Of a DNA stretch of 42,260 nucleotides, positions 1-42,260 are shown one piece after another. Numbering within the stretch: the first letter of the stretch is position 1; each line of letters starts with the position of its first letter. The position numbers were made by a program, and so were the translations under genes. The notes beneath the pieces were generated by a model that ran no database searches, had not been told where the DNA came from, and worked only from the letters and a program-made list of their open reading frames with translations. The DNA lies in the NCBI GenBank assembly GCA_964372955.1, contig CAYJTC010000002.1, forward strand, positions 1 through 42,260, given 5' to 3'. This stretch comes from an uncultured Planctomycetia bacterium (GTDB lineage: Bacteria; Omnitrophota; Gorgyraeia; 1-14-0-20-64-10).

Positions 1-2373
1 CCCTCCGATAGCCGACCCGATCACCTCCTGCGCGGCCGCCACGGAAAGCCCGTAGCGGGCCAGCGCCTCTCGCTTGAGCTCGAAATCCAGAAAGTAGCCG
101 CCGGTCACCCGCTCCGCGTAGACCGAGCGGGTGCCGGGAATCGGCTGGAGAATCCTTTCCAGTTGAACGCCGATCTCCTCGATCCTCTTCAAATCGGACC
201 CCAGGATTTTGACGCCGACCGGCGTCCGAACACCGGTGGTCAGCATGTCGATCCGGTTTTTGATCGGCATCGTCCAGGCGTTGGTCGTCCCGGGAATCTT
301 GAGCGCCTCATCCATCCGACGGATCAGCTCCTCCCGGGAGACCCCTTTGCGCCATTCCTTCTGGGGCTTGAGCAGAACCACCGTCTCCATCATCGAAAAG
401 GGGGCCGGATCGGTGGCGCTTTCCATTCGGCCAGCTTTGCCGAAGACCCGCTCCACCTCCGGGAAGCTTTTTAAGATCCGATCCTGCGTCTGGAGCAGGC
501 GCTGGGCCTCGGTGACGGCCAGGCCCGGCAGGGTGGTCGGCATGTAGAGGAAGTTTCCTTCCCAAAGAGGAGGCATGAACTCGGAGCCCAGACTCAAGTA
601 AACCGGGATGGTCGTGGCAACCAGCAGGGCCGCCGCCAGGATCGTCCCCTTCCGATGACGCAGAACGAACCGGCAGGCCGGCTCGTACACCTTGAACAGG
701 CGCCGGCTGATCGGGTGTTTCTCTTCCGGATAATAGGTGCCGACCGCCACCGTGGTCGCCAGCTTCGAGGCCCATCCCTCGACTTTGCTCGGGATGAACG
801 GCAGGCGCAGTTTGATCGGCTCCATCCGGGTGAACATCATCCGCATCGCCGGATCCAGGGTGATGGCCAGCAGCGCTGCGATCGCCATCGCCAAGTTCTT
901 GGCCCAGGCCAGCGGCTTGAAGAGGCGCCCCTCCTGATCCACCAGGGTGAAGATCGGCAGGAAGGCCACCGCGATCACCAGCAGGGAGAAGAAAACGGAA
1001 GGCCCCACCTCTTTCAAGGCCTTCAGCCGCACCGCGTGGTAGTCCCCCTGCCTTCCCCCCTCCACCCATTGCTCCAGCCGCTTGTAGGCGTTCTCCACCT
1101 CCACGATCGCCCCGTCGACCAGCACGCCGATCGAGATGGCGATCCCCGAAAGGCTCATGATGTTGGAGGTCATCTTCAATCCGTAAAGAGGGATAAAGGA
1201 AAGCAGGACCGCGATGGGGATCGTGACGATGGGGATGATGGCCGATGGAAAATGCCAGAGGAAGAGCAGGATCACCAGGCTCACGATGATCATCTCCTCG
1301 ATCAGCTGGTGCTTGAGGGTGTCAATCGCCTCTAAGATCAGCTCCGACCGGTCGTAGAGGGTGACCACCCGGACCCCTTCCGGCAAAGAGGGCTCTATCT
1401 CCTTCAACCGGGCCTTGACCCGGCCGATCACCTTCAGGGCATTCTCGCCGGAGCGCATGATCACCGTACCGGTCACCACATCCCCTTCCCCATCCAGGTC
1501 GGCGATCCCCCGGCGGATCTCCGGCCCCAGGGAAACGGTTCCGATGTTCTTGACCCAGATCGGGGTCCCCGCCTTATCCACCCCGACGGCGATCTCCTCC
1601 AGATCCTGGACGGAACGGGCGTATCCTCTGCCTCGGACCATGTATTCGGCTCCGGAGAATTCCAGCAGGCGGCCTCCCGCCTCCTGGTTCCCCTGACGAA
1701 TCGCCTCAATCACGTCGGTCAGCGGAAGGCTGTATCCCAGAAGCCGGGTCGGATCGATCGTGATCTGGTACTGTTTGACGAATCCGCCCAGGGAGGCCAC
1801 CTCCGCCACGCCGGGCACGCTCTGAAGGTGATAGCGGAGATACCAGTCCTGAAAGGAGCGCAGCTGCTGAAGATCCTGCTTTCCGGAGGTGTCGACGAGG
1901 GCATATTGATACACCCAACCGACTCCGGTGGCGTCCGGCCCCAGCTCGGTCCGGACCCCCTCCGGCAGGCGGGGGATGATCTTGCTCAAGTACTCCAGAA
2001 CGCGGGAGCGGGCCCAGTAAAGATCGGTCCCGTCCTTGAAGATCACGTAGACGTAGGAGAAGCCGAAGTCGGAGAAGCCCCGGATCGCCTTGACCTGGGG
2101 AGCTCCCAGCAAGGCGGTGACGATCGGATAGGTGACCTGGTCTTCGATGAGGTCGGGGCTGCGGTCCCAGCGGGAGTAGAGGATGACCTGCGTGTCGGAG
2201 AGATCCGGGATGGCGTCCAGCGGAATATTTCTTGCCGACCAGACCGCGCCGAACATCGCGGCCAGCACAAGGATCAGAATCAGAAAGCGATTGCGGGCGG
2301 AGAACTCGATGATCCTTTCAATGGGGCCAGCACTTACGGAGCCGTCAGGCGACGTCAAGTGCCCTGGCCTCAT
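1..2373 (-). CDS. cusA: Heavy-metal efflux RND permease, CusA/CzcA family (3' end runs off the window; 791 codons present)
   Basis: Absent from the ORF track because no stop lies in the window. The reverse complement from ATG 2373..2371 reads MRPGHLTSPDGSVSAGPIERIIEFSARNRFLILILVLAAMFGAVWSARNIPLDAIPDLSDTQVILYSRWDRSPDLIEDQVTYPIVTALLGAPQVKAIRGFSDFGFSYVYVIFKDGTDLYWARSRVLEYLSKIIPRLPEGVRTELGPDATGVGW. This matches the CusA N-terminus nearly motif for motif. The same frame at nt 120..1 reads YAERVTGGYFLDFELKREALARYGLSVAAAQEVIGSAIGG. I translated both ends, not every codon in between. No other minus-strand ORF in the track uses this frame. It lies downstream of the adaptor and OMF genes. Confidence 0.93.
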   Translation of the reverse strand, partial: MRPGHLTSPDGSVSAGPIERIIEFSARNRFLILILVLAAMFGAVWSARNIPLDAIPDLSDTQVILYSRWDRSPDLIEDQVTYPIVTALLGAPQVKAIRGFSDFGFSYVYVIFKDGTDLYWARSRVLEYLSKIIPRLPEGVRTELGPDATGVGWVYQYALVDTSGKQDLQQLRSFQDWYLRYHLQSVPGVAEVASLGGFVKQYQITIDPTRLLGYSLPLTDVIEAIRQGNQEAGGRLLEFSGAEYMVRGRGYARSVQDLEEIAVGVDKAGTPIWVKNIGTVSLGPEIRRGIADLDGEGDVVTGTVIMRSGENALKVIGRVKARLKEIEPSLPEGVRVVTLYDRSELILEAIDTLKHQLIEEMIIVSLVILLFLWHFPSAIIPIVTIPIAVLLSFIPLYGLKMTSNIMSLSGIAISIGVLVDGAIVEVENAYKRLEQWVEGGRQGDYHAVRLKALKEVGPSVFFSLLVIAVAFLPIFTLVDQEGRLFKPLAWAKNLAMAIAALLAITLDPAMRMMFTRMEPIKLRLPFIPSKVEGWASKLATTVAVGTYYPEEKHPISRRLFKVYEPACRFVLRHRKGTILAAALLVATTIPVYLSLGSEFMPPLWEGNFLYMPTTLPGLAVTEAQRLLQTQDRILKSFPEVERVFGKAGRMESATDPAPFSMMETVVLLKPQKEWRKGVSREELIRRMDEALKIPGTTNAWTMPIKNRIDMLTTGVRTPVGVKILGSDLKRIEEIGVQLERILQPIPGTRSVYAERVTGGYFLDFELKREALARYGLSVAAAQEVIGSAIGG

Positions 2374-2416
2374 TGATCCCGCCCCGCCCGACAGGGGGGG
2401 ATCGGGATTCCGATTA

Positions 2417-3835
2417 TCAGGGACCATGGTGGTGTCCAGGTTCCAGGGCTGCCTTCAGACGGCTCTCGGAATCCACCAGGAAATTGCCGTTGACCACCAC
2501 CGGCTCTGCCTCTGAAACCCCGCTCTTGATCTCCACGAAGCCCTCCGCCCGGACGCCGGCGGAGATTTCTCTGGGCTCCAAAACCCCCTGCCCCCGATCC
2601 ACAAACAGGATCTGCCGGGCGCCGGTTTCCAGAACCGCCTCCGAAGGGACCGCCAGCCGCTGGCCGAGATCGACCCGGATCTGAGCCGCGGCAAACATCC
2701 CGGGCCGCAGGATCCCCTCCAGGTTAGGAAGCTCAAGCCGGGCGGTGGCGGTTCGGGTCTCTTCGTTGAGCGTGGGAGATAGAAAGACCACCTTGCCCTG
2801 AAGCGGCTCGTCGGGCTGCTGCGGCAAAGTCACCTGCGCCTCCTGCCCTTCCCGGACAAACGGCAGGTCCGCTTCATACACCTGGACATCCACCCAAACA
2901 GTGGAAAGATCGGCGACATGGTAGAAGTCGGCCCCCCGCTCCATGTATTCGCCCGGGAAGACATGCTTCCTAAGCACAAAGCCGTCCAGGGGGGAGGTCA
3001 AAACCAGGGTCTTGGCCGCGGCCCCGCGCTCCTCCAGGGCTTGGATCTGCTCCTCGGAGATGTCCCACCCGAGGAGCCGCTGGCGGGCCGATTCCAGGTT
3101 CTCCTGCGCCCTCTGACGGATCGCCGGATCGGCGCCCGCGGGGACCTCCTCAACCCAGCGGCGGGTCGACAGATACTCCTGCTGGGTGGTGACGAAATCT
3201 GGACTGTAAAAGGAAAAGAGCGGCTCCCCTTTTCGCACCCGGTCCCCTTCGTATCGGGCATAGATCTGGTCGATCCAGCCCTCCACCTTCGGGTGGACGT
3301 GAACGATCCGGGTCTCATCCACCCTCACCCGCCCGACGGCCCGGATCTGCTTGACCATCTGCCGCCTCTGGGCCGGGGCAGTCCTGACCCCAATGAGCTG
3401 CTGCCGGTGGGGAGAAAGCAGAACAGCCGCGTAACCGGCTGGGGTCGCTTCCGCCTGCGCCATCCCAGCCATCCCTTCGCCGCCGGAAACGTGCGTGCCG
3501 CAGACCGGACAGGAGACCTCTTCGCCCGCGCTGGAGATGACCAGCATCGGACAGAGCCGTCCCTCCTGGAGCATGGGGCAGTTGTGCAGGACGCAGATCT
3601 CCTTGGGCGAAGAGGCGGCCGTCTCCTTTTTCACCAGCCGCATGTTGCAGATGGGGCAGTCTCCTGGCCGATCTGCGGTGTAGGTCGGATGCATCGGGCA
3701 GTAGTAGAGATCCGCCCCCTTCTGCAAAGAGTGGGCCCGATGCCGGAGCGCCTGCGTGGCGACGATCCCCGTCAACAGAACCAGGACAACTCCCGCCCCA
3801 ACGGCCAGTCTGCGGCCTCCCGGAATCTTCATCAT
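2417..3835 (-). CDS. cusB: RND efflux periplasmic adaptor (membrane fusion protein, CusB/CzcB family) with N-terminal Cys/Met metal-binding motifs
   Basis: 472-aa ORF. N-terminal anchor RRLAVGAGVVLVLLTGIVA. Metal motifs YYCPMHPTYTADRPGDCPICNMRL, CPMLQEGRLCPML and CPVCGTH. MFP core follows (IRAVGRVRVDETRIVHVHPKVEGWIDQIY, LTSPLDGFVLRKHVFPGEY, ARLELPNLEGILRPGMFA). ATGA start/stop overlap with the upstream OMF gene at 3832..3835. Confidence 0.9.
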   Translation of the reverse strand: MMKIPGGRRLAVGAGVVLVLLTGIVATQALRHRAHSLQKGADLYYCPMHPTYTADRPGDCPICNMRLVKKETAASSPKEICVLHNCPMLQEGRLCPMLVISSAGEEVSCPVCGTHVSGGEGMAGMAQAEATPAGYAAVLLSPHRQQLIGVRTAPAQRRQMVKQIRAVGRVRVDETRIVHVHPKVEGWIDQIYARYEGDRVRKGEPLFSFYSPDFVTTQQEYLSTRRWVEEVPAGADPAIRQRAQENLESARQRLLGWDISEEQIQALEERGAAAKTLVLTSPLDGFVLRKHVFPGEYMERGADFYHVADLSTVWVDVQVYEADLPFVREGQEAQVTLPQQPDEPLQGKVVFLSPTLNEETRTATARLELPNLEGILRPGMFAAAQIRVDLGQRLAVPSEAVLETGARQILFVDRGQGVLEPREISAGVRAEGFVEIKSGVSEAEPVVVNGNFLVDSESRLKAALEPGHHHGP

Positions 3836-5193
3836 GGCTTTCGCCCCTCCTCCGAAAGTTCGTGCTGCTCCCGCAGGGGGATTCCCACCGCCTGCTCGAG
3901 CATGACCAGATGCTGTTCCAAAAGGGCCAGGTGCTGGTAGTAGGTCCGATGCCGTTGGGAAAGCTCCCGCTGCGCCTCCAGCAGATCACCCAGTGGAGCC
4001 GTCCCGGCTCGATAGGAAGCCAGCAGGGAGGAGACCCGTTGGCGGTCCAGCGGAATGAGCCCCTCCTGGCAAAGCTTCGCCGTGGCAAAAATCGCCTGGG
4101 CTTCCTGCCAATGTTCATGGATCCGGCGGGCGATCTGGTTGCGGGCCCCCTGGTAGGCGGCCTCGGTCGATTCCTTGTCGTACAGGGCGGCGCGGACCCC
4201 ATACTTCTGTTTGGTCCAGAACCAGAACGGCAGGACCAGCGCCAAGGTCAGATCCCACGGCCCCATCGGCCCCATCGCCGGATCCCGCAGCTCCACCATC
4301 GTCTCTAAGTCCGGCAGCAGCTCCCGCTTGGCCAGACGGTGGGCGGCCTGCGCCCGCTCCGCCGAATATCTAAAAGCCAGCAGCTCCGGCTGGTTCTCCT
4401 CCGCCTGGGTCAGAAGCTCCTCAGGCCCGGAAGGCACCTCCAGCAGGCTTAAAGGGCCTGGCGGGCCCATCGGGGCTCCGGCCGGCCGGTTCAGGAGGTG
4501 ATTCAGATGCGCCCAGGCCGCTTTGCGGCGGTGCTCCAGGACGGTCAGCTCGTTTTCGGCCTTCAGGCGTTCCGTCTGAACCTGCAGAAGCTCCGGTTGG
4601 CTGAGCGTTCCGGCCGCGTACCGGGCCCGCGCGGTGGCATCGGCCTGCTCAAACAAAAGGATCTGCTCCCGCTGAATCTCCATCTCCCGGTCCAACAAGA
4701 ACAGGTCGTAGTAGCCGGACTTCAGCTCGCTCAAAATCTCCCATTCCCTTTGCTTGAACATCGCCCCGGCCATCTGCGCCTCCTTGACCGCCACCTGCCC
4801 TTTGAGGGAAAGCTTGCCGGGGAAAGGCAGGGACTGAATCAGGGAGTAAAGGATCGTCGCCTGGTTGAGCTTCACGGTGCCCCGCGGGATCTCCTCGAAC
4901 TCCACCCCGATCCTGGGAGCCGGCAGCCCTTTGGCCTGCGGGATCCTCTCCTGCGCGGCCTCCCAGCGCTTCCGAGCGGCCCGCAGGTCCGGGTTGACTC
5001 GCCGGGCCTCTTCCAGCAGAGGAGCCAAGGAAAGGACCCCTGCCCCGTCGGCCGCAAGGGTGGGTGAAGGGTGAAGGGTGAAGGGTGAAAAAGAAAATGC
5101 CATGATGAGAAACCAGGAGACTCTCGAAAATTTCCCGTTCTTGGCCTTCACCTTACACCTTCGACCCTTCACCGTTTTTCCACTAGGGCACAT
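3832..5193 (-). CDS. Outer-membrane efflux factor, TolC/CzcC/CusC family
   Basis: 453-aa ORF with the two-repeat OMF pattern (LSLAPLLEEARRVNPDLRAARKRWEAAQERI and LTQAEENQPELLAFRYSAERAQAAHRLAKRELLPDL). First gene of the C-B-A order. The start is uncertain. ATG 5193 overlaps the upstream gene by 25 nt. In-frame GTG 5151 (MKAKNGKFSRVSWFLIMAFSFSPFTLHPSPTLAA|DG) and ATG 5103 are alternatives. Confidence 0.85.
   Translation of the reverse strand: MCPSGKTVKGRRCKVKAKNGKFSRVSWFLIMAFSFSPFTLHPSPTLAADGAGVLSLAPLLEEARRVNPDLRAARKRWEAAQERIPQAKGLPAPRIGVEFEEIPRGTVKLNQATILYSLIQSLPFPGKLSLKGQVAVKEAQMAGAMFKQREWEILSELKSGYYDLFLLDREMEIQREQILLFEQADATARARYAAGTLSQPELLQVQTERLKAENELTVLEHRRKAAWAHLNHLLNRPAGAPMGPPGPLSLLEVPSGPEELLTQAEENQPELLAFRYSAERAQAAHRLAKRELLPDLETMVELRDPAMGPMGPWDLTLALVLPFWFWTKQKYGVRAALYDKESTEAAYQGARNQIARRIHEHWQEAQAIFATAKLCQEGLIPLDRQRVSSLLASYRAGTAPLGDLLEAQRELSQRHRTYYQHLALLEQHLVMLEQAVGIPLREQHELSEEGRKP
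5056..5173. repeat. Inverted arrays of heptanucleotide repeats bracketing the OMF gene 5' end
   Basis: + strand 5056..5090 is AAGGGTG followed by (GGGTGAA)x4. + strand 5145..5173 is CCTTCACCTTACACCTTCGACCCTTCACC, degenerate complements of the same 7-mer. The two arms flank a spacer of about 54 nt that contains the ATG at 5103. Confidence 0.9.
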
Positions 5194-5642
5194 CCCTTTG
5201 TCATGCCGCAGGCGGTCATCCGGCAGGCGGCCCGAAGCTCCCCAGTTATCATTCCGTTGAGCTTATCCCGCTGGGAAACGTCCAAGATCTTCCGGACCTC
5301 CAACAGGTGTTCCAGGGTGGCCCTCTCCAGAGCCGCCTGCTCCCGCCCAATCTCTCCCACCAGTGAATCCAGCGCCATCCGGTCCGGCTGATCCTGCTTG
5401 ACCAGCTGGATCAACTGGGCCCGTTTCTCGCAGAGAAGCTGGCAGCTCTGCTGTTTCTGGGCCAGGAAGCTTTTTTCCAGAGAAGCCACCTGCTCCTTTT
5501 GAGCCGGCGTCAGATTCAGTCCACGAGCCAAGGAGATTTGTGCCCTTTTAGAGGCGATCAGCTGACAGCATCCCACCGTGGCCAGATAGGCAACCCCCGC
5601 TACGACTCCCAGAAGCGCAGCCCCAATCAAAAACCGCTTCAT
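5169..5642 (-). CDS. Periplasmic metal/stress sensor-like protein, LTXXQ (CpxP/Spy/ZraP) family, with Cys-rich C-terminal tail
   Basis: Chosen start is ATG 5642 (MKRFLIGAALLGVVAGVAYLA, signal/anchor), with GGAGGAGGAGAGG directly upstream. The ORF track start at 5675 adds 11 residues. LTXXQ motif NLTPAQKEQV. All-helical, Q/E/L-rich sequence. C-terminus AACRMTACGMTKGCALVEKR. Lies between the anti-sigma candidate and the efflux genes. Confidence 0.7.
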   Translation of the reverse strand: MKRFLIGAALLGVVAGVAYLATVGCCQLIASKRAQISLARGLNLTPAQKEQVASLEKSFLAQKQQSCQLLCEKRAQLIQLVKQDQPDRMALDSLVGEIGREQAALERATLEHLLEVRKILDVSQRDKLNGMITGELRAACRMTACGMTKGCALVEKR

Positions 5643-5658
5643 CCTCTCCTCCTCCGTA

Positions 5659-5714
5659 CAAAAGGGGTCAGGCACTTTTTGACGCTTTTTGACGAGACTC
5701 TCAGTCCTGACCCC
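5659..5714. repeat. REP-like hairpin, GGGGTCAG family
   Basis: CAAAAGGGGTCAGGCACTTTTTGAC (5659..5683) is identical to 38948..38972. Imperfect stem GGGGTCAGGCAC (5664..5675) / GTCCTGACCCC (5704..5714). The right arm encodes the last codons (GGQD*) of the upstream gene. Confidence 0.8.
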
Positions 5715-6024
5715 CGCTGGTTAACCTCAAATAATTCCCCGCGATCGAGTCGAACGGGGCGTTGCCGAACAGATCCAGCCGCTCCAGCCGCCGAACCTGG
5801 TCAATCTCCTGCCGTTGAGGAAAACCAAAGCCCCAGGTCCAGATGCCGGTCATGATCCCAGCGACGGCCGCCAGCCCCAGCGCCGGGACCGGCAACGCCC
5901 AGACCGGCCGCCCCGGCTGGATCAGCCGGCGCCAAAGCCGCAGGGTGAAATCGGGAGAAACCTCCTGGAGAGGATAAGCCCCCTTCAACAGCCGGTTCAG
6001 CTTGTCATCCGATGAATCTCCCAT
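5701..6024 (-). CDS. Small single-pass membrane protein, candidate anti-sigma factor (CnrY-like in size and position)
   Basis: Chosen start is ATG 6024 (MGDSSDDKLNRLLKGAYPLQEVSPDFTLRLWRRL), with AAAGGGGGGAAT upstream. One TM segment (VWALPVPALGLAAVAGIMTGIWTWGF). Located between the ECF sigma and the periplasmic sensor. No zf-HC2 motif is visible, so the function is inferred from context only. The track ORF extends to 6255 through a repeat element. Confidence 0.45.
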   Translation of the reverse strand: MGDSSDDKLNRLLKGAYPLQEVSPDFTLRLWRRLIQPGRPVWALPVPALGLAAVAGIMTGIWTWGFGFPQRQEIDQVRRLERLDLFGNAPFDSIAGNYLRLTSGGQD

Positions 6025-6160
6025 GGCATTCCCCCCTTTCACTCTATGAAACGCACGAATACAGTCCATCCCCCAAGAATCTTTCGTGTTAAGGGCCCGC
6101 CCAGGGGCGGAGCGATGCGCGAAGGGAACCCCCGGATCGGGGGGTGAAGGAGTTAGAGTA

Positions 6161-6274
6161 CGACTCATGCAAACTGACCCGTTCACCCTGAGCCTGTCGA
6201 AGGGTGAACGGCGATGTTCGTGCTTCGACCCTTCGACTTTGCTCAGGATCAGCACGAACGGTTTTGCATGACTC
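6161..6274. repeat. About 115-bp nested palindromic element (three-way structure) between the ECF sigma and anti-sigma genes
   Basis: Outer stem GACTCATGCAAA (6162..6173) / TTTGCATGACTC (6263..6274), one mismatch. Inner hairpin 1: GTTCACCC (6181..6188) / GGGTGAAC (6202..6209). Inner hairpin 2: GTTCGTGCT (6216..6224) / AGCACGAAC (6251..6259). Translations (PFTLSLSKGE.., ..FDRLRVNG..) resemble the pseudo-peptides I associate with widespread intergenic repeats in environmental genomes. Confidence 0.75.
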
Positions 6275-6278
6275 GTGG

Positions 6279-6848
6279 TTAGAGTAAAGCGGAGAGGCGC
6301 TGCTTGAGGAGGGAGCGGGCGCGGGAGAGGCGGTGCTCGACCGCTTTAGGGGTCATTCCCAGGATCCGGGCAACTTCCTCCTGGGGAAGCTCTTCGAAGG
6401 TAGCAAGAATCAGGGGAACGCGCAGAGGCGCTGGAAGAGCCGCCACCGCCTGCCGGGCCAGGCGGGAGGTCTCCGCTTGGGCCAGCCGTTCCCGGGGATT
6501 GATATCTGAGGGGTCCGGCAGTTTTTCGGCCAGCGGAACCCCTTCCGGGTCCTCTTCCTGCAGGGAGATCGTCTCGAAGGCGGCCGGCTTGCGGCGCAGA
6601 AGATCCAGGCAGTGGTTGACGGTCACCCGGTAAAGCCAGGTGGACAGCTTCGTTTCAGGATTCAAAGTGGGAGGATGCCGGTACAGCTTGAAGAAGACCT
6701 CCTGGGCGGCGTCCTCGGCGTCGGCGGTCGTGCCCAGAAAACGGTAGGCCAGGTTGATGACCCGGGAGGCGTGCCGTTCCATGAGGGCCCGGAACGCCTC
6801 CGGATCGCGGGAAGCGACGCCGCCTAAAAGCTCCCGCTCGTCATCCAC
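6279..6848 (-). CDS. RNA polymerase ECF-type sigma-70 factor
   Basis: 189 aa. Region 2: RHASRVINLAYRFLGTTADAEDAAQEVFFKLYRH and STWLYRVTVNHCLDLLRRK. Region 4 HTH: LPQEEVARILGMTPKAVEHRLSRARSLLKQRL. GTG start at 6848, 3 nt after the upstream stop, with GAGTAGAGG upstream. Confidence 0.92.
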   Translation of the reverse strand: MDDERELLGGVASRDPEAFRALMERHASRVINLAYRFLGTTADAEDAAQEVFFKLYRHPPTLNPETKLSTWLYRVTVNHCLDLLRRKPAAFETISLQEEDPEGVPLAEKLPDPSDINPRERLAQAETSRLARQAVAALPAPLRVPLILATFEELPQEEVARILGMTPKAVEHRLSRARSLLKQRLSALL

Positions 6849-6851
6849 CCT

Positions 6852-7091
6852 CTACTCGATGACGTCGCCGACGATCGGCTCAACCTTGATCCCCTGGCGG
6901 GTCAAATAGCGGACTCCCTTCTCCAGGTTCTCCCGGGTCCCCTCCAACTCCAGCACCATCTCCCCGACCGACTCGGTCACCTTGGCCCGCCGGACGTTGG
7001 GGACCACCCGGCATTTGACCGCCATGGTGTAGATCACCGGCTTCTTGATCAGCCGCTGGGGAAAGATTAGGTGGACGATTTTTTTGGACAT
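6852..7091 (-). CDS. NIL-domain protein (stand-alone, about 79 aa)
   Basis: Chosen start is ATG 7091 (MSKKIVHLIFPQRLIKKPVIYTMAVKCRVVPNVRRAKVTESVGEMVLELEGTRENLEKGVRYLTRQGIKVEPIVGDVIE), which looks like a typical NIL fold sequence. It lies 4 nt after the MoaD-like stop. The 43-codon upstream extension in the ORF track is only the MoaD tail repeat read in another frame. Confidence 0.75.
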   Translation of the reverse strand: MSKKIVHLIFPQRLIKKPVIYTMAVKCRVVPNVRRAKVTESVGEMVLELEGTRENLEKGVRYLTRQGIKVEPIVGDVIE

Positions 7092-7095
7092 CGGA

Positions 7096-7458
7096 TCAGC
7101 CCCCACCTGCGATGGCCGGTGCGCAGAGGCGCCTGGCATCGCTTCCACCTGCGATGGCCGGTGCGCAGAGGCGCCTGGCATCGCTTCCTCCTGCGATGGC
7201 CGGGATGATCGACACCTCATCCCCGTCCTTCAGGGGAGTGGCCTCTGCCTTCAGGAACCGGATGTCTTCTTCATTCACGTAGATGTTGACGAACCGCCGC
7301 AGGCGCCCCTGCGGATCGCACAGACGATCCTTGAAGCCGGGGAACTGCTTTTCCAGGTCCTGGATCAGGTCCTGGACCGTCTGCCCGGAGGCGTCCACCT
7401 CCGGTTTATCTCCGGTCAACTTCTGCAGTGGAGTCGGTATTCTGACAACAATGGCCAT
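7096..7458 (-). CDS. MoaD/ThiS-family ubiquitin-like sulfur-carrier protein with a repeated C-terminal extension
   Basis: 120 aa. Beta-grasp pattern MAIVVRIPTPLQKLTGDKPEVDASGQTVQDLIQDL...FVNIYVNEEDIRFLKAEATPLKDGDEVSIIPAIAGG. Instead of stopping after GG it continues SDARRLCAPAIAGGSDARRLCAPAIAGGG*. Confidence 0.85.
   Translation of the reverse strand: MAIVVRIPTPLQKLTGDKPEVDASGQTVQDLIQDLEKQFPGFKDRLCDPQGRLRRFVNIYVNEEDIRFLKAEATPLKDGDEVSIIPAIAGGSDARRLCAPAIAGGSDARRLCAPAIAGGG
7104..7203. repeat. Perfect 42-bp tandem repeat (2 full copies plus a 16-nt third copy) inside the 3' end of the sulfur-carrier gene
   Basis: CACCTGCGATGGCCGGTGCGCAGAGGCGCCTGGCATCGCTTC occurs at 7104..7145 and identically at 7146..7187. 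7188..7203 repeats the first 16 nt with one mismatch. Confidence 0.95.
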
Positions 7459-8744: not shown

Positions 8745-9535
8745 TAAGACGGTGAATAGTGAATCGTGGATAGTGAATCGATCGGCTTCTCTTTTTTGAG
8801 AGCCTTGGGCAGGATCACCACTTCCACGCGGCGGTTTTGGCGGCGGCCCTCCGGGGTATCGTTGGAGGCCACCGGATGGAACTCCCCGACCCCAACCGCC
8901 CTCAGGCGGGCCGGCTCAACCGCTTGCTGATCGATAAAATGGTGAACCACCGCCAGCGCCCGGGCAGTGGAGAGCTCCCAGTTGGACCTCCATCCGGAAT
9001 ACCGGATCGGCTCGTTATCGGTGTGCCCCTCCACCGCCACCGGGGAGTCCGGAACCGTTTCTTTGAGAACCGCGGCCACCTTTTCCAGAGTTTGGGCCCC
9101 CTCCTCTTTAACCAGCGCCTTGCCGGAATCGAAGAAGATCTCATCCAGGAAGGTCAGCACCAGCCCCCGCTCCGTCATCTCCAGCTTGGCCCGGGCCTCC
9201 CCCAACTCCTTCTTCAAGCTTTCGGCCAACTCCTCCTGGGCGTCAAGCAGCTCCTGGTTCTCCCGGGATTTCTGCTCGACCACCTGCGCGACCTGTCGGG
9301 TTTGCTCCTCCTGGAGCCGGCCGATCTGCGTCAGCAGATCCCGGCGGGATTGCTCGGCCTGGCTCAGCCGGCCTTTGAGCCGCTCCACCTCGGTCTCCAG
9401 GCCCTGCATTCGGGCCGACTTCCAGCCCCAGGAACAGCCGGTGAGAAGCAGGGAAAAGAGGGGAAACAGGGAGAACAGGGGAAACAGGGAAAACAGGTTT
9501 CCCCTGATTCCCCTGCCTCCCCTATTCACCCTCAT
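8744..9535 (-). CDS. OmpA/MotB-family lipoprotein with coiled-coil linker
   Basis: 263 aa. Lipobox LLLTGC. Coiled coil (LETEVERLKGRLSQAEQSRRDLLTQIGRLQEEQ). OmpA-C domain (VEGHTDNEPIRYSGWRSNWELSTARALAVVHHF, RRQNRRVEVVIL). ATGA overlap with the upstream MBL gene at 9532..9535. Confidence 0.9.
   Translation of the reverse strand: MRVNRGGRGIRGNLFSLFPLFSLFPLFSLLLTGCSWGWKSARMQGLETEVERLKGRLSQAEQSRRDLLTQIGRLQEEQTRQVAQVVEQKSRENQELLDAQEELAESLKKELGEARAKLEMTERGLVLTFLDEIFFDSGKALVKEEGAQTLEKVAAVLKETVPDSPVAVEGHTDNEPIRYSGWRSNWELSTARALAVVHHFIDQQAVEPARLRAVGVGEFHPVASNDTPEGRRQNRRVEVVILPKALKKEKPIDSLSTIHYSPS
8751..8780. repeat. Heptanucleotide tract in the last codons of the OmpA-like gene
   Basis: GGTGAAT AGTGAAT CGTGGAT AGTGAAT CG. 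Period 7. Immediately upstream, in mRNA sense, of the ThrC-like start codon. Confidence 0.8.
9448..9535. repeat. Inverted arrays of 9-bp repeats encoding the OmpA-like signal peptide
   Basis: + strand 9448..9497: GCAGGGAAAAGAGGGGAAACAGGGAGAACAGGGGAAACAGGGAAAACAGG. + strand 9498..9535 is the complementary type: TTTCCCCTGATTCCCCTGCCTCCCCTATTCACCCTCAT. In mRNA sense the G-rich arm gives MRVNRGGRGIRGN and the C-rich arm gives LFSLFPLFSLFPLFSLLL. Confidence 0.9.
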
Positions 9536-10239
9536 TCCCCTCTTGCCCCTTCCTTGCGCAGGATCTCGACCATCTTTCCCTTGGCCAGGCTCTCGAACCG
9601 CTTGGCGTCGGCCACCGTTCCCACGACAGAGCCGTAATGCATCGGCACATACACCTTAGCCGCAATGGCCCCCGCGGCTTTCGCCGCTTCCTCGGCGGTC
9701 ATCACGTAGGTGCCGCTGACCGGCAGAAGGGCCACATCCACTTTGATCTGTTTCATCTCCGGGATGAAATCGGTGTCGCCGGCATGGTAAAAACGAGTTC
9801 CGTCAACCTCCAGGATGAAGCCGACCCAGCCGTTTTCCTTGAGATGGAACATCTTGTTGGCGTTGTAGGCCGGCACCGCCTCGATTTGAACCTTCTTCAA
9901 GGTCAAGACATCCCCCGGCTTGACCGGATGAATCTTCCCCGGAACTCGGGCCTGCTCCAGCTTCGCCACAGCTCCTGTGACGGTGACGATCACCGTGTCG
10001 GCCTTGGCCACCTTGATCACGTCCGGCGGGGAGAGGTGGTCGAAGTGAGGATGGGTGATCAAAATCAGGTCCGCGTCGTGCGGCTCCCCCTCGATCTGCC
10101 AAGGGTCGAAATAGATCGTCACCTCCGCTCCGACTAGCTTGAAGGCGGCGTGCCCCAGCCAGGTTAAACCCCGGGTATAAGAGGAAGCCGGCATCTCCAC
10201 AGCGCTAAAAGCGGTCGTGAGTCGTGAGTCATGGGTCAT
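9532..10239 (-). CDS. MBL-fold metallo-hydrolase (UPF0173-like)
   Basis: Core LTWLGHAAFKLVGAEVTIYFDPWQIEGEPHDADLILITHPHFDHLSPPDV, and later YHAGDTDFIPEM and LLPVSGTYVMTAEEAAKAA. The start is uncertain. ATG 10239 is conservative. ATG 10371 would add a hydrophobic signal-like stretch (RRGLFFLGFLLLL) but would translate a REP hairpin. The track start 10482 overlaps the giant ORF end. Confidence 0.85.
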   Translation of the reverse strand: MTHDSRLTTAFSAVEMPASSYTRGLTWLGHAAFKLVGAEVTIYFDPWQIEGEPHDADLILITHPHFDHLSPPDVIKVAKADTVIVTVTGAVAKLEQARVPGKIHPVKPGDVLTLKKVQIEAVPAYNANKMFHLKENGWVGFILEVDGTRFYHAGDTDFIPEMKQIKVDVALLPVSGTYVMTAEEAAKAAGAIAAKVYVPMHYGSVVGTVADAKRFESLAKGKMVEILRKEGARGE

Positions 10240-10243
10240 GAGT
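10214..10243. repeat. Heptanucleotide tract at the MBL gene 5' end
   Basis: GTCGTGA GTCGTGA GTCATGG GTCATGA GT. Period 7. No inverted partner seen. Confidence 0.8.
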
Positions 10244-10294
10244 AAAAGCAAAAATCCAAGGAAAAACAGGCCTCTTCGATGGAAAGGCAGATCT

Positions 10295-10351
10295 AAAGGG
10301 GTCAGACCCCTGTGAAACTCCGTTTTACCTGTAAGGGGTCTGACCCCTTTT
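10295..10351. repeat. REP-like hairpin, GGGGTCAG family
   Basis: AAAGGGGTCAGACCCCT (10295..10311) and AGGGGTCTGACCCCTTT (10334..10350) form a perfect 17-bp stem with a 22-nt loop, 52 nt downstream of the giant ORF-B stop. Confidence 0.85.
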
Positions 10352-10402
10352 GAGATGGGGTGCCGATCCATGGAGGCCAGTATAGCAAAAGAAGGGTGGG
10401 GT

Positions 10403-13400
10403 TTACAGGTAGAGTTCGGGCTGGCGCTCGAGCCGCTTCTGCCAGGTCCGGAAGGAGACGTCCTCGATCTCCAGGAAATCACCCAGCCCGCTCAGGCCCG
10501 AAGGGGTCCAGATGGTCAGGACATCCAGGCCGCGGCCGATGGCGTCCACTTGCATCTTGGTGATCACATCCGACGGGTCTTTATCGGCATAGGGAGGGCT
10601 TTTCAGATTGATGATTTTCGCCGCCAGGCCGGTGTCCTTTAGCCAGCCCTCAATCTGCCCGGCGTGGTGGACATGCTCGGCGAAGATCACCAGGTTGATC
10701 TGCTCGCCGGGGACCGGCTTCAGCTGAGCCAGGCCCTGAAGCACCTCCTCGGTGGCCACCTCCGGCCCCAGGAAGATCACCTTCCCCGCCGTCACGCCGG
10801 GCTTCAGCCGGATTTGAAGCTCCTCAAGCCCGGCCGTAGCAGGTTGGGCTTTAACCCGGGCCTGAGCGAGAGCTTTCGGATACCATTCCTCGTCAACCAG
10901 CTTGCGAAGGGCTTCCGCCACTTGTTTGGCGCGCGCTCCTTGGCCTTCGGTGGCAATGCGCAACATCCCCTCTGTCAAAGAACCTCTGAGCCAGACGAAC
11001 GCCTTCCCGCCGTCCAGCTCCAACTCCATAATCCATCCTCCCATACCGAAGGGAGTCCCATTCTCGCTGGGCAAGGTCAAACCGGCTCCCGCCGGATCGG
11101 CCGGACCATAAGCGGGAGAGAGACCGGTTTCCGAGTCGTAAACAATCCGGTAATCGGCCGTAGGATGCACCGATGTCCCGTCCGCCAGGATGAGTCCCTC
11201 TTTCTGGAGTCGATCCCGCAGGTTTTCCTTCCACAGGGTTTCCCAAGCCCGTTTGAAAGGGATCATGAGCGCCTCCGGAACCTCTCCCTGTGCTCCCTGA
11301 TCGCGGATCGGGGTGGAGAAACGCCAGCTTCCCTCGCTCCGGTCTCCCGGCAGGCTCCCGAGAATATCCAACAGAGTGGGCACGGCAGGCACTTCTACTG
11401 GAGGAACGCCGTTGGGTACCGCGGCGTTTCTGGCTTGGAGCCAACTTCGCGCCCATTCCGGATCGGTGGCCACCATCCCTAGAAATAGAGCGGTCATCGC
11501 CCCGTTGCGGCTGGTATCCCCCAAAAACTGAGCGCTCTCTCCCCGGAATACCGTGCCGCCGTTGGCTCCTTCGATTCCAAGAACCACCCGATAAGTAGGG
11601 CGGCCTCCGGCGTCCTTCTGTGCCTCCAGCTTCCTCATCTTCTCCAAGACGTTGACCTCTCCCACCTCCACTGGGAACACCTCAGCCCCAAAGGCCTTGG
11701 CGATTTCCAAAACCCGTTTGGAGGTGGCGCTGTGAGCGACGACGGCCAATTTTGAAGCATCCCCCGCCGGTCGAGCGCGGGCGGCTCTGGCTAAGCCCAA
11801 AGCCATGTTCATCGCGGCCACCTCTTGGGGATTGGGCTCAACGGCCTGACCGGTCTTGGGATCCAGAAGGAGCGTGTTCGCCCGGTCGGCGTCGTAATCG
11901 GTGATGATGGCGAAATGGGCTTGGGCTTCTTTCAGCACCCTCTCAGCATCGGCCAACGCGTTCCCCTTCTCTGGATCGTTCACCGGCTCCAGGATATGCT
12001 GGGGCTGTCCTACAACATGGTTGATCTCGATCAGATCAAACCCCATCCTTTCTAGGAATTCCGCGTAATACCCGGTTGCCGCCCCTCCATTAGGATCAAC
12101 CACAATCCGGACCCGTTTGGCTTTCTCTCGAAATCCCTGGAACTCCTCCTCCTGTTCCAAACCCCACATCTGCCGAGCCTCTTTGACAACCTGCCCCAGA
12201 ATCTTCTCCCGAGAGACCGTTTCAAGTCTGCCGACGGGCACGGCGTTCAAGCGCTGGACAAATTCCTGTGCCTGCTCAGGAGACGCCCCCGCCTGCGCGG
12301 CCCACCGGCGGAATTGGTCGACGACACTCTTCATCTGGCGCGAGGGAAGCAGGATCCCTCCTTCCACCAGACTTCCCGCGGGTTCGGTGGCGGCTGTTGG
12401 GTATTTTACGCCGTTCCATCTTAAAGGATTGTGGCTGGCAGTGATGATGCCCCCTCCATGCGCTTCCACCAAGCGCACTAGACTCTCAGAGAGGGGGGTG
12501 GGAAGGATTCCCCCCTCGACTTCAACGAACCGGACCTTGACGTTGAACTCCTGGGCTGCGACCGAAATCCCCCGCATGTGGGCCTCCTGGATGGCCCTGC
12601 CGGTTGGACGGGGATCCCGCCCAAAGATGAAGGTAAACTCCGAACGGCCGGAAAATTTCTCAATCTGGAGTTTGGCGAAAAGGTACCCGTATCGCGCGAA
12701 GATCAGCTTCTGCGCGGGGGAAAGCTTCACATCCGCCAGCGGAGCCAAAATGGGAGGGTCGACGTTCGGGCCCAAATCGGCCCGCACACCGGAGAAGGAC
12801 TGGATCAGTGTCCTGTCCGGATCAGTCACCTCGGCCCACTTGGACCAATCGATGGGGCCTAGCCATTCCTCCGGGCCGGCCACAACCTCGCTTTGCGGAT
12901 GGACGAAGACGGCGAACTCCCCTTCGAAACCCATCTTTGAACGAACGACGGTGACATTCCCTCCGAGGGACTGTTGGATCGCCTCCAGGAAGATATCCGG
13001 CTTTCCACTTTCCTCAGGAGGCAGTCCCCAGAGCTGGCCAATCGATCCGGCCAAGACAATCGGCCCCTGCGTGAAGGGCTGCCCGGCGTAGGCGTCCAGG
13101 TAAACCCGCAGGACCTGGCCCAGCTCGGTTCCAACCTGCTCCAGGAACTGGCGGGCCAGTCTGCCGTGGATCGTTGAATCGTTCAAAGCTCTCTGGGTTA
13201 TCCCCTGGAGAACGATCAGCTGCAGCTTCTCGTCCGCCAAGATCGGCCGGTGGGCGCCGGGAAGATCATCCTCAGTCAGATTTTGGGTCACCGGACCACC
13301 GAATAATCGGTCAATCTCTGCATCGGACAGACGGTACAAATCATTGTTTCTCAGGAATTCAATGGTGCGGGCCGCAAGCCACGGCCCTCCAAACTCCTTC

Positions 13401-39009: not shown

Positions 39010-41269
39010 CCTCCATTTTGAAGAGGCGCATCTGGATCCAGGAGAAGCACATGGTGATCAGGAACAGGATGTAGCCGACCGCCGCGGCCCGGCCCATGTC
39101 GAACCGGTGGAAGCCGGTCTCATAGAGGTACCAGACCACCGTCGTGGTGGCCCCCAGGGGCCCGCCCTGGGTCATGGCGAAGATCTCCGGAAAAACCTGG
39201 AAGGTGTGGATCGTGTTGATCACCGTGGCCAGCAGGATGATCGGCTTGAGCTGCGGCAGGGTGATGTGGCGGAATTTCTGCCACTCGTTGGCCCCGTCGA
39301 TGGAGGCCGCCTCGTAAAGCTCAATGGGGATCGTCTGCAGGCCGGCCAGGAACAGGACCATGTAGTAGCCGAAGCTGGCCCAGACGTTCATCATCATGAT
39401 CGCCGGCAGGGCCCACTTCGTGTTGAGCAGCCAGCTGGGAGTGGGAACCGGCAGGTGCAGCCACTCCAGGGCCCGGTTGACCAGCCCATCGGGCGCGTAG
39501 AGATAGGTGAAGATCGTGGCGATCACGATCACCGAGGTGGCCACCGGCAGGAACAGCCCCGCCTGGTAAAGCTGCTTGAAGGGAACCTTGATGTTGATCA
39601 GGACCGCCGCGAACAGGGCCAGCGCCATGGTCGGGGGGATCGTTCCGGCGGCGAAGAAGCAGGTGTGCCACAAAGCGCTGAGGAAATCGGGCTCCTGGAG
39701 CACCTCCACGAAATTGCGCAACCCCACGAAGGCCATCTCGGAGCTGAGCAGGTTGTACCTGGAAAAGCTTAAGATCAGGGAATGCAGGAGCGGGATCAGA
39801 CTGAATCCCAGGAAGGTGATCAGCCACGGGGCCAGAAAGGTCAGGCTGATCCCGATGCTGGAGACCGACAGCCGGGGGCCGGCGGCCGGCCCCTTGCGCC
39901 GCTTGAAAACCGAGGCGGCGATGATCCCGCCGGCTAGCAGAAGCAGGAATCCGGCGAAAACGATCGTGTCGGTCAGGCGGCCCCGGACCTCGGAGGTCTG
40001 GAGAACCGAATTGATCGCAGCGGTCGTCTCCTTGAGCTGGGCATCCGGGTCGGCGCCGTTTAAGATCACCTCCTCCACCATCCGGGTGATCCGCTCCTGC
40101 ATCCGGACCCAGCCCGGGTGGGCCGGCGGAGCCACCGCGTACTGGACCTGCTCGAAGACCAGCCGCTGTTCCGGGTGGCTCCTGTAGTAGGGGTGCTGGA
40201 TCGCCGACTTGGCCGTGGGGACGATGTTCCGCTGGGCCTCGACGATCGCCATCGCCTGCTCCTCGCCAACCAGGAACAGGATCAGCTTGAGGGCCTCTTC
40301 CGGGTGCTTGGAGTTCTTCAGAAGCACCAGGATCTCCCCGCCGGCGAAGGAGGCCGGAGTCCCCCTTCCTGCGGCCGGCCTGGGCAGGAGGCCCACGCCG
40401 TAGTTCAAGGTGGGGTTCATCCGTGGAATCAGGGAAAAGTTCCAGGATCCCGAAATCTGGATCCCCAGCCGGCCCTCGGCGAAAAGCTGATTCACCTGCG
40501 CCTGGCGTTCCACCAGGGCGAACGGTTTGAGCGAGCGGTAAAAGGCGAGGGCTTCTTGAACGGGGGGCTGGTCCAGCAGGCAGCGCTGCCAGGAATCGTC
40601 CAGAATCTGACCGCCGTTGCTCCACACGAAAGGAAGAAACTCCTGCCAGGGAGCGTAGGGCTCCGCCACATGCAGGCCGATCCCGTAGATGTCGGGGCCT
40701 AAGGCGTCCACGGCCTGGGCCGCCTGCCTGAGCTCTTCCCAGGTGGTCGGAGGCCGATCCGGGTTCAGGCCCGCCTGCGCGAAAAGGGCCCGGTTGTAGA
40801 ACAGGATCCGGGTTCCGGCCAGCCAAGGTACGCCGTAGACTCGGTCCCGGAAAGTGGCCGGATCCCAGAGCAGATACTGGTCCCGGATCGGAGCCACCGA
40901 TTCGGTCAGATCCCGCAGAACCCCGGTGGAGGAGAATTGGGGGACCCAATCGGTCCCCAGCTCGCAGACGTCCGGCGCGTTGTCGGCGGCGATTGAGATA
41001 ATCACCTTGTCCAGCCCGTAATCCCAGGAAAGCTGCTGGAACCGGACCTTGATTCCCGGGTTCTGCCGCTCGAATTTGTCCAGCAGGGAGCGCATCAGCT
41101 CCTCGCCGACCGACAGCTCCCAGAAATCCAGCGTCACCGTCTCCGTCGCAAAAACGGGTGGAGGGTGCAGGGTGCAGGGTGCAGACGAATAAAGAAGGGC
41201 GAGAGCGAGCATCCATCCCTTTAAGGTTCCCCACCCTCGACCCTTCACCCTACACCGACTGGTATTCAT
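38990..41269 (-). CDS. Fusion protein: family-1 extracellular solute-binding protein plus MalF-type ABC permease
   Basis: 759 aa. The N-terminal ~430 aa is SBP-like (TLDFWELSVGEELMRSLLDKFERQNPGIKVRFQQLSWDYGLDKVIISIAADNAPDV, VPWLAGTRILFYNRALF). A TM segment follows (IVFAGFLLLLAGGIIAASVF), then a 6-TM permease with EAA loop (LYEAASIDGANEWQKFRHITLPQLKP). The start ATG 41269 is supported by an abutting promoter. ATG 41215 (MLALALLYSS) is the alternative. Confidence 0.9.
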   Translation of the reverse strand: MNTSRCRVKGRGWGTLKGWMLALALLYSSAPCTLHPPPVFATETVTLDFWELSVGEELMRSLLDKFERQNPGIKVRFQQLSWDYGLDKVIISIAADNAPDVCELGTDWVPQFSSTGVLRDLTESVAPIRDQYLLWDPATFRDRVYGVPWLAGTRILFYNRALFAQAGLNPDRPPTTWEELRQAAQAVDALGPDIYGIGLHVAEPYAPWQEFLPFVWSNGGQILDDSWQRCLLDQPPVQEALAFYRSLKPFALVERQAQVNQLFAEGRLGIQISGSWNFSLIPRMNPTLNYGVGLLPRPAAGRGTPASFAGGEILVLLKNSKHPEEALKLILFLVGEEQAMAIVEAQRNIVPTAKSAIQHPYYRSHPEQRLVFEQVQYAVAPPAHPGWVRMQERITRMVEEVILNGADPDAQLKETTAAINSVLQTSEVRGRLTDTIVFAGFLLLLAGGIIAASVFKRRKGPAAGPRLSVSSIGISLTFLAPWLITFLGFSLIPLLHSLILSFSRYNLLSSEMAFVGLRNFVEVLQEPDFLSALWHTCFFAAGTIPPTMALALFAAVLINIKVPFKQLYQAGLFLPVATSVIVIATIFTYLYAPDGLVNRALEWLHLPVPTPSWLLNTKWALPAIMMMNVWASFGYYMVLFLAGLQTIPIELYEAASIDGANEWQKFRHITLPQLKPIILLATVINTIHTFQVFPEIFAMTQGGPLGATTTVVWYLYETGFHRFDMGRAAAVGYILFLITMCFSWIQMRLFKMEEGSGTL
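41156..41256. repeat. Inverted arrays of heptanucleotide repeats across the SBP-permease gene 5' end
   Basis: + strand 41156..41184: GGGTGGA GGGTGCA GGGTGCA GGGTGCA G. + strand 41229..41256: CCCCACCCTCGACCCTTCACCCTACACC, complements of GGGTGNA units. A 44-nt spacer contains ATG 41215. Shares the core GGTGAAGGGTCGA with the 5145..5173 arm. Confidence 0.9.

Positions 41270-41336: not shown

Positions 41337-42260
<924 letters not shown>

Follow-up and report, generated by a model that had tools for sequence, protein, structure and literature searches.

Paired heptamer arrays at the start of the outer-membrane factor gene

The locus described here raises the question of why the coding sequence of an outer-membrane factor (OMF) should begin between two inverted arrays of the same 7-nt repeat. 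The OMF gene belongs to a metal efflux operon and lies in a stretch of 42,260 nt (positions 1 to 42,260 of contig CAYJTC010000002.1, assembly GCA_964372955.1), referred to below as the window, of a metagenome-assembled genome (MAG) of 1.69 Mb in 145 contigs with 61.5% G+C. The original prediction held that gain or loss of one GGGTGAA unit would switch the OMF reading frame on or off, with pairing of the two arrays across the initiation region as its alternative. We consider it likely that the arrays are instead the arms of a gene-less hairpin-element copy, similar to a miniature inverted-repeat transposable element (MITE), which was co-opted into the signal peptide, and that they are not a dedicated phase-variation switch.

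Tandem Repeats Finder (TRF) reported a perfect period-7 array at 5062-5089 (unit GGGTGAA, 4.0 copies, 100% match) and a second array of the complementary unit at 5145-5173 (4.3 copies, 76% match). The first is as perfect as had been predicted, with the proposed position of 5063..5090 off by one base, and the second was recovered exactly where it had been placed. An inverted-repeat search joined the two as arms of 27 nt with 81% complementarity, 57 nt apart. Searching the window for (GGGTGAA)x3 at up to 3 mismatches returned four sites, two at the OMF and two at 41156-41183, compared to 0.00 occurrences in 100 dinucleotide-preserving shuffles of the window. The 55-nt spacer between the arms had no second copy in the genome, with only its self-match returned by blastn-short against the whole genome. 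The arms do bracket the candidate OMF starts, and the translations predicted for them hold in the OMF frame, with TVKGRRCKVKAK read from the 5' arm and SPFTLHPSPTL from the 3' arm. The 5' arm was said to overlap the last codons of the preceding gene; only the stop (TGA, 5171-5169) and two bases of the final sense codon are in fact shared.

An in-frame GTG at 5172-5170 overlaps this stop codon (GTGA), and the same stop/start overlap was observed in the orthologues L003 and L009. A second in-frame GTG (5151-5149) is contained in the final unit of this arm and has AAGGTG four bases before it, and each GTG in the arm is preceded by an AAGG-type Shine-Dalgarno-like core. No 16S rRNA gene, looked for as a check of the anti-Shine-Dalgarno sequence, is present in the MAG, and the Shine-Dalgarno role of AAGG in the 5' arm is therefore putative. 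A start 3' of both arms had been regarded in the original prediction as incompatible with it; no usable OMF start lies there. Since the ATG at 5103 gives no basic n-region and only a stub of the hydrophobic core, too short to serve, the start is either GTG 5151 or GTG 5172, with leaders of 33 aa and 40 aa, respectively. We favour GTG 5151 by analogy with the other genes of this genome that carry such a cassette of paired arms in their leader, whose start is the final GTG within the G-rich arm (MKARAW.., MKGRAW.., MKKSII..).

The leader was compared with the features of a Sec-type (signal peptidase I) signal peptide, namely a basic n-region, an h-region of 7-15 residues, and a c-region with small residues at -3/-1 directly before the conserved mature domain. 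All of these were found (M(KGRRCKV)KAKNGKFSR / VSWFLIMAFSF / SPFTLHPSPTLA|ADG), and cleavage is predicted. In the mRNA-strand translation SPFTLHPSP of the 3' arm is followed by TLA|ADG and then by LSLAPLLEEARRVNPDL, and the leader aligns with orthologue leaders ending A|ADG before LSLPxLLxEL. Because the 3' arm encodes SPFTLHPSP directly before this conserved cleavage site, it is, as read from the sequence, certainly coding, whichever GTG is used.

Distribution of the arrays in the genome

A total of 114 period-7 arrays of at least 2.8 copies were observed in the genome, 21 of them with the GGGTGAA unit. Other heptamer families include AATTCGC, ACGACTC, ACCCTCC, ACACGGG and others, and more than 100 nonamer arrays are also present. 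Gene starts were taken from a crude model of 1429 genes. Of the 114 heptamer arrays, 61 fell between -10 and +45 codons relative to such a start, where 14% would be expected from length, an enrichment of about fourfold. In at least six other exported proteins (SBP_bac_1 solute-binding, PCMT, OmpH/Skp, PDZ, TPR/Peptidase_MA and OMP-like), the hydrophobic core lies between GGGTGAA-type arms, as does one transmembrane helix of Lnt. Further arrays were observed in frame in an RsmD-like methyltransferase and in the LexA linker that joins the DNA-binding domain to the S24 domain, and other copies of the family are plain intergenic hairpins.

Among pairs with a spacer of 30-75 nt, the spacer was hydrophobic in the frame of the downstream gene in 11 of the 11 listed by hand. 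The C-rich arm on the coding strand was the better preserved in six of six pairs for which TRF scored both arms; for the pair at the solute-binding protein, the G-rich arm was not called by TRF. When perfect, a G-rich arm contains TGA once per 21 nt in each of the three reading frames. The LexA copy (C5:10256-10327) is a complete in-frame heptamer hairpin within the interdomain linker (..RVLVKGEGSRVKGDICDLTPSTLHPPPISIP..) and would lengthen the hinge beside the self-cleavage region.

The diversity of units also bears on the G3N4 pattern that had been pointed out on the + strand. The pattern is present as described, with five GGG runs 1-4 nt apart at 5058-5085, and by sequence it fits a G-quadruplex motif of at least four G3 runs spaced by 1-7 nt. 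A G-quadruplex on this (template) strand could in principle modulate transcription or replication through the OMF start, a role that we regard as extremely improbable. The same architecture, with inverted tandem arms at gene starts and around PF05635 genes, is built from many units without G-runs (AATTCGC, ACGACTC, ACACTGG, TAGCTCA, AGTCGTG), and the mRNA has the C-rich strand of the perfect arm. Because most units have no G-runs, the motif is incidental to the array family.

Thirty-five contig ends were found within 150 nt of an array of 7-10-nt units, compared to 7.4 expected, an excess that repeats by themselves would produce. Breaks in the assembly fall preferentially at arrays, and copy numbers, above all those of the long nonamer arrays, may therefore be collapsed.

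Arrays flanking PF05635 genes

The genome contains four genes of the PF05635 family ('23S rRNA intervening-sequence protein', a four-helix bundle). One of these (C52:5728-6042) lies between a GGGTGAA-type G-arm (5685-5715) and C-arm (6073-6101), the whole cassette being wedged between leuC and leuD, and the arrays around the other three have nonamer or octamer units. We extended the survey to this genome and 20 relatives, counting arrays within 260 nt, and observed an array on at least one side of 24 of 25 PF05635 loci and on both sides of 14. Each cassette has its own unit, with left and right arms complementary to each other. The complementarity averaged 15.5/18 for arms within a cassette versus 10.0/18 between cassettes, and only 1% of the cross-cassette pairs reached the within-cassette median.

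Two further candidates were tried and rejected. A link to repetitive extragenic palindromes and their associated transposases (REP/RAYT) was set aside, as none of the four Y1-transposase (PF01797) genes has a heptamer or nonamer array within 700 nt. A 53-aa open reading frame (ORF) at C3:31909-32067 (MKVQSYKELEVWKK...) was considered as a decaying four-helix-bundle gene, and it had neither a Pfam match at E <= 1 nor a BLASTP alignment to the C70 four-helix-bundle protein, one of the four in this genome. This ORF lies between GTGAATA and ACGATCC arrays in the region C3:31878-32095.

The same junction in orthologous loci

We compared the OMF with 31 distinct orthologous loci of the same synteny from genomes and metagenomes. 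The orthologue leaders are 20-30 aa long, often with a GTG overlapping the upstream TGA, and frequently end A|ADG before LSLPxLLxEL. GGGTGAA arrays were observed in 0 of the 31. The DNA alignment of the operon to its relatives breaks near 5020 and resumes near 5195, and exact (GGGTGAA)x3 was found only in this genome among 301 sampled Omnitrophota genomes. No genome of the same genus was found, the nearest relative having 74% DNA identity; the best match of the metagenome scan had 71% protein identity, and an exact look-up of the adaptor protein of the operon returned no record. Judged from these alignments, the presence and absence at orthologous sites fits insertion rather than an ancestral feature.

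Several of the orthologues carry other repeats at this junction. These are GTCATGG / CTCACGA heptamers in L010, GTGAGCT-type heptamers in L018, GTCAGGA / CTCCTCC arrays in L034-036, and a full GTCATTGCGAGCG... palindrome in L015, L020 and L032. Half of the latter palindrome was observed in six further loci (L009, L029, L031, L037, L039, L040), where it reads (D)RFVALLLAMT. With no GGGTGAA arrays in any orthologue and other repeats in their place, the arrays cannot be regarded as a regulatory device conserved in this operon. Hairpin repeats have repeatedly landed or expanded in the OMF leader region, and in related genera at least four different palindromic repeats have each remodelled the same operon junction independently. 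Within the OMF leaders of related genera the palindrome (GTCATTGCGAGCG..GCAATC / GATTGC..CTCGCAATGAC) contributes SLRAKKSN.. plus ..DRFVALLLAMT, and its half-element supplies a hydrophobic core that looks conserved.

A probable hairpin-element copy within the signal peptide

The proposed explanation builds on the observed array family, its distribution, its reading frame and its absence from the orthologues. Full-length members of the family would consist of a PF05635 gene between inverted arrays of 7-10-nt units. In this Omnitrophota genome their arms would have accumulated at gene boundaries, and the OMF copy would have been absorbed into the region coding for the signal peptide. Its G-rich 5' arm may supply Shine-Dalgarno-like AAGG cores, the GTG starts and a Lys/Arg/Gly-rich n-region, the unique spacer of the OMF itself the hydrophobic core, and the C-rich 3' arm a Pro/Ser/Thr-rich c-region ahead of the conserved A|ADG. 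The arms would pair in the mRNA and enclose the start codons, in which case OMF translation would need ribosomes finishing the upstream gene to open the stem. By analogy with the rRNA intervening sequence, such a stem could also be a target of RNase III.

Four observations weigh against this explanation. There is no PF05635 gene or recognisable remnant between the OMF arms, and the spacer is unique in the genome. The descent from a full cassette is therefore deduced from arm identity only, and since the unique spacer encodes the OMF's own hydrophobic core, the copy was classed only as gene-less and arm-only. The explanation also does not account for how two arms came to lie around a hydrophobic core that was already there. 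Hydrophobic N-termini are no more common than elsewhere among genes with 5' arrays (16 of 47 array genes, compared to 29% of all genes by crude hydropathy); we rejected a signal-peptide-specific enrichment of the arrays, which are enriched at gene starts in general. Use within signal peptides is a frequent outcome in a subset of the family and not its rule. Finally, in minimum free energy the OMF start window ranked only at the 33rd percentile of 1331 gene starts.

The pairing that had been put forward as an alternative to the switch was assessed from predicted RNA folds. The OMF arms can form a duplex of -36.7 kcal/mol that encloses both GTG starts, and the predicted fold of 5040-5200 was more stable than its shuffles (z = -2.56). 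These values, the location of both GTG starts and the upstream stop inside the 5' arm, and the co-variation of arms within cassettes would be consistent with a selected RNA hairpin, in which the stem hides the Shine-Dalgarno sequence and GTG until the upstream cistron is translated, or in which RNase III uncouples the regulatory from the pump genes. We nevertheless regard such a selected hairpin as unlikely, since none of the 31 orthologous junctions has the stem and most of these loci encode a plain signal peptide, the arms are only 81% complementary, the energy of the start region is ordinary for this GC-rich genome, and no terminator-like site was called. For the latter, no intrinsic terminator was called on the mRNA strand, where the 3' arm is not followed by a U-tract; only on the + strand is there a T5 run after the hairpin. 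An exceptionally structured OMF start region was rejected on the 33rd percentile given above, and occlusion is therefore not exceptional. Pairing of the arms thus stands as plausible; given the ordinary energy and the unconserved stem, coupling to the upstream gene and RNase III sensitivity would be plausible consequences of insertion rather than a demonstrated function.

Proposed phase variation of the OMF

As the 7-nt unit of the 3' arm lies inside coding sequence, gain or loss of one unit shifts the OMF frame, and this part of the original prediction stands. By slipped-strand phase variation, one GGGTGAA unit more or less would toggle the OMF, and hence the outer channel of the pump, at high frequency. 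Consistent with such a switch, the perfect 4-unit tract sits between the hydrophobic core and the mature N-terminus, it ranks in the top 9 of the 117 heptamer arrays for perfection, and several exported proteins carry the same repeat in their leader in the manner of a multi-locus contingency set. The excess of contig ends near arrays (35 versus 7.4) could also reflect population heterogeneity, although repeat-induced breaks explain it equally.

The rate of switching reportedly rises with repeat number (De Bolle 2000, listed in PMC11868660). The four units of the OMF tract are short of a hypermutable length when compared to the 13-24 units of the phase-variable heptanucleotide tract (ATCTTTC) of Haemophilus hmwA (PMC8262952). 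The longest perfect run in the genome has 5.7 units, and 96 of the 117 heptamer arrays have at most 2 perfect units; perfect arrays besides that of the OMF include C3:16207-16282, C3:4112-4152 and C2:43110-43140. Equivalent in-frame arrays in LexA, Lnt and the RsmD-like protein also argue against a switch, since frequent frameshifts there would be costly, and every translated array examined was in the ON frame. The inverted partner and the PF05635 cassettes indicate another origin. With four units, membership in a hairpin family and copies in housekeeping genes, nothing lends the proposed switch positive support, and we consider it quite improbable.

Possible signal-peptide cassettes in other genes

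A further possibility, which we hold to be doubtful, is that the inverted-array hairpins are modular, mobile signal-peptide cassettes, whose insertion before an ORF could create, replace or remodel an export signal. In such a cassette the G-rich arm would provide the ribosome-binding site, GTG and basic n-region, the T-rich loop the hydrophobic core, and the C-rich arm a Pro-rich c-region, with the terminal CACCGTTTTTGCG read as P-V-F-A to give a signal-peptidase site. Two leader hairpins (C92:1008-1105 and C98:3685-3800) are about 90% identical over 91 nt including the loop, with a 6-nt indel, while the mature proteins that follow (TPR/Peptidase_MA and OMP-like) are without similarity. A second type of cassette (SWVMGxGSWVKK-core-LTTHDSRLTTVFA) precedes three genes here as well as the OMF orthologue of another genus. 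For the OMF itself, an element origin applies to the arms alone. We found no description of hairpins as portable signal-peptide cassettes in the literature, in searches that were not aimed at signal peptides or Omnitrophota by name.

Leaders of the SWVM type were located at C2:43043-43140 (just past the end of the window), C4:22759-22855, C3:7226-7337 and locus L010. They combine GTCATGG/GTCTTGG and CTCACGA arms, and read (K/R)SWVMxxGSWVKK, a hydrophobic core and LTTHDSRLTT(V/A)FA|.

The efflux operon and other features of the window

The genes around the OMF, all on the minus strand, form a Cus/Czc-type metal efflux operon with its own regulator (Table 1), and relatives carry the label Candidatus Omnitrophota. 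The C-terminus of the Metal_resist protein contains a Cys motif duplicated as ACRMT-ACGMT through a 15-nt direct repeat at 5200-5229 (GTCATGCCGCAGGCG / GTCATCCGGCAGGCG). Orthologues retain a C-x-x-T-A-C-G motif, which is a probable metal-binding site. At 7103-7203, a tandem repeat of 42 nt (2.4 copies, 98% identity) was also observed, inside or beside a NIL-domain gene (6852-7220, minus).

Table 1. Coordinates of the OMF arms, related arrays and operon genes in the window
Feature	Position	Strand	Description	Basis
5' arm on mRNA	5145..5173	-	degenerate GGTGAAG/GGTCGAA/GGTGTAA/GGTGAAG units	TRF (76% match), sequence
Spacer between arms, 55 nt	5090..5144	-	encodes ..KNGKFSRVSWFLIMAFSF, end of n-region and hydrophobic h-region	translation
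3' arm on mRNA	5062..5089	-	(TTCACCC)x4, perfect; read SPFTLHPSP, c-region of OMF signal peptide	TRF, sequence, translation
Predicted signal-peptidase site TLA|ADG	5050..5055	-	cut between 5053 and 5052; orthologues also show A|ADG	
Second pair in window	41156..41257	-	(GGGTGCA)x4 and degenerate complement; brackets h-region of solute-binding protein (MNTSRCRVKGRGWGTLKGWMLALALLYSSAPCTLHPPPVFA|TE)	
Nonamer analogue	9443..9550	-	CAGGGAAAA arrays and complement encode MRVNRGGRGIRGNLFSLFPLFSLFPLFSLLLTGC, lipoprotein-type signal peptide of OmpA-like gene	TRF, sequence reading
Extracytoplasmic function (ECF) sigma factor	6279-6848	-		
ORF without Pfam match	5701-6255	-	probably anti-sigma factor	
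Metal_resist/LTXXQ protein	5169-5675	-	periplasmic heavy-metal-resistance protein, CpxP/ZraP-like; stop codon inside 5' arm	
OMF gene	3832..5172	-	Pfam OEP, TolC/CusC-like; start GTG 5172 or GTG 5151; longest ORF to ATG 5193	
CusB-like adaptor	2417-3835	-	with heavy-metal-binding domain	
AcrB-family resistance-nodulation-division (RND) pump	1-2427	-	cut by window edge	

Further arrays were observed elsewhere in the window. Single-arm GTGAATA/GTGAATC heptamers lie at 8752-8780, at the junction of the OmpA-like gene and a PALP-enzyme gene, and single-arm GTCGTGA/GTCATGA heptamers at 10214-10243, inside a longest-start ORF (9535-10482). A nonamer palindrome occupies 41995-42260 and continues on contig C2, with (GGGGAAACA)x18 followed by at least 11.7 complementary units. 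It is located directly after the stop codon of a + strand gene, and one of its frames is open, reading (RGN/RGI)n-(LSS/LFS)n.

Comparison with known systems

Heterocystous cyanobacteria carry short tandemly repeated repetitive (STRR) heptanucleotide sequences, reportedly described by Mazel et al. in 1990. As in these STRR, there are several families of tandem heptamers here, with many copies per genome and mostly at gene boundaries. The phylum and the units are different, and inverted pairs and the use of the repeats in coding signal peptides are not known for the STRR.

In Neisseria, the coding repeats (CTCTT) in the leader peptide of opa are phase-variable. The OMF tract resembles the leader repeats of opa and hmwA in that the region coding for the signal peptide contains a tandem unit whose length is not divisible by 3, and at 7 nt the OMF unit is as long as that of hmwA. 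In contrast, the OMF repeat is paired with an inverted complement, the same repeats are found in housekeeping genes, and there are 4 units rather than the 13-24 of hmwA. The OMF offers a caution, in that a non-triplet leader repeat may resemble a contingency switch and yet be, as here, a single member of a hairpin-element family spread over the genome.

Rickettsia palindromic elements (RPE) and other MITE- or REP-like palindromes are known to insert in frame into protein-coding genes (reviewed in PMC10969869). Like RPE, the present family is a multi-copy palindrome without a transposase of its own that is tolerated in frame in unrelated proteins, in the LexA linker, Lnt, the RsmD-like protein and signal peptides. 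Unlike RPE, to which there is no sequence relation, its arms are tandem short units that differ from copy to copy, its bias towards gene starts is strong, and the two OMF arms are complementary in role, one basic and the other Pro-rich. The purine-rich arm maps to the basic part of the export signal and the pyrimidine-rich arm to its Pro-rich or hydrophobic part. That selfish hairpin elements shape secretion signals in Omnitrophota, and may spread them, is an idea that can be tested.

The PF05635 cassettes, with arms on either side of the gene, have the architecture of the ORF-bearing 23S rRNA intervening sequences of Coxiella burnetii and Leptospira, in which an S23p/PF05635 gene occupies the loop of a terminal stem of about 28 bp that is excised by RNase III (PMC4990558). 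The OMF copy differs from these in being located in an mRNA, at an operon junction and inside coding sequence, and in having arms of tandem 7-nt units with no ORF between them. As in the intervening sequences, the two inverted arms of about 28 nt can form a stem, within the arm length of 25-30 nt, and GGGTGAA-family arms enclose a PF05635 gene elsewhere in this genome. Arm-only copies of a four-helix-bundle cassette similar to an intervening sequence would be translated as parts of signal peptides, of membrane-protein loops and of the LexA linker, and the orphan PF05635 family gains a concrete genomic partner for study.

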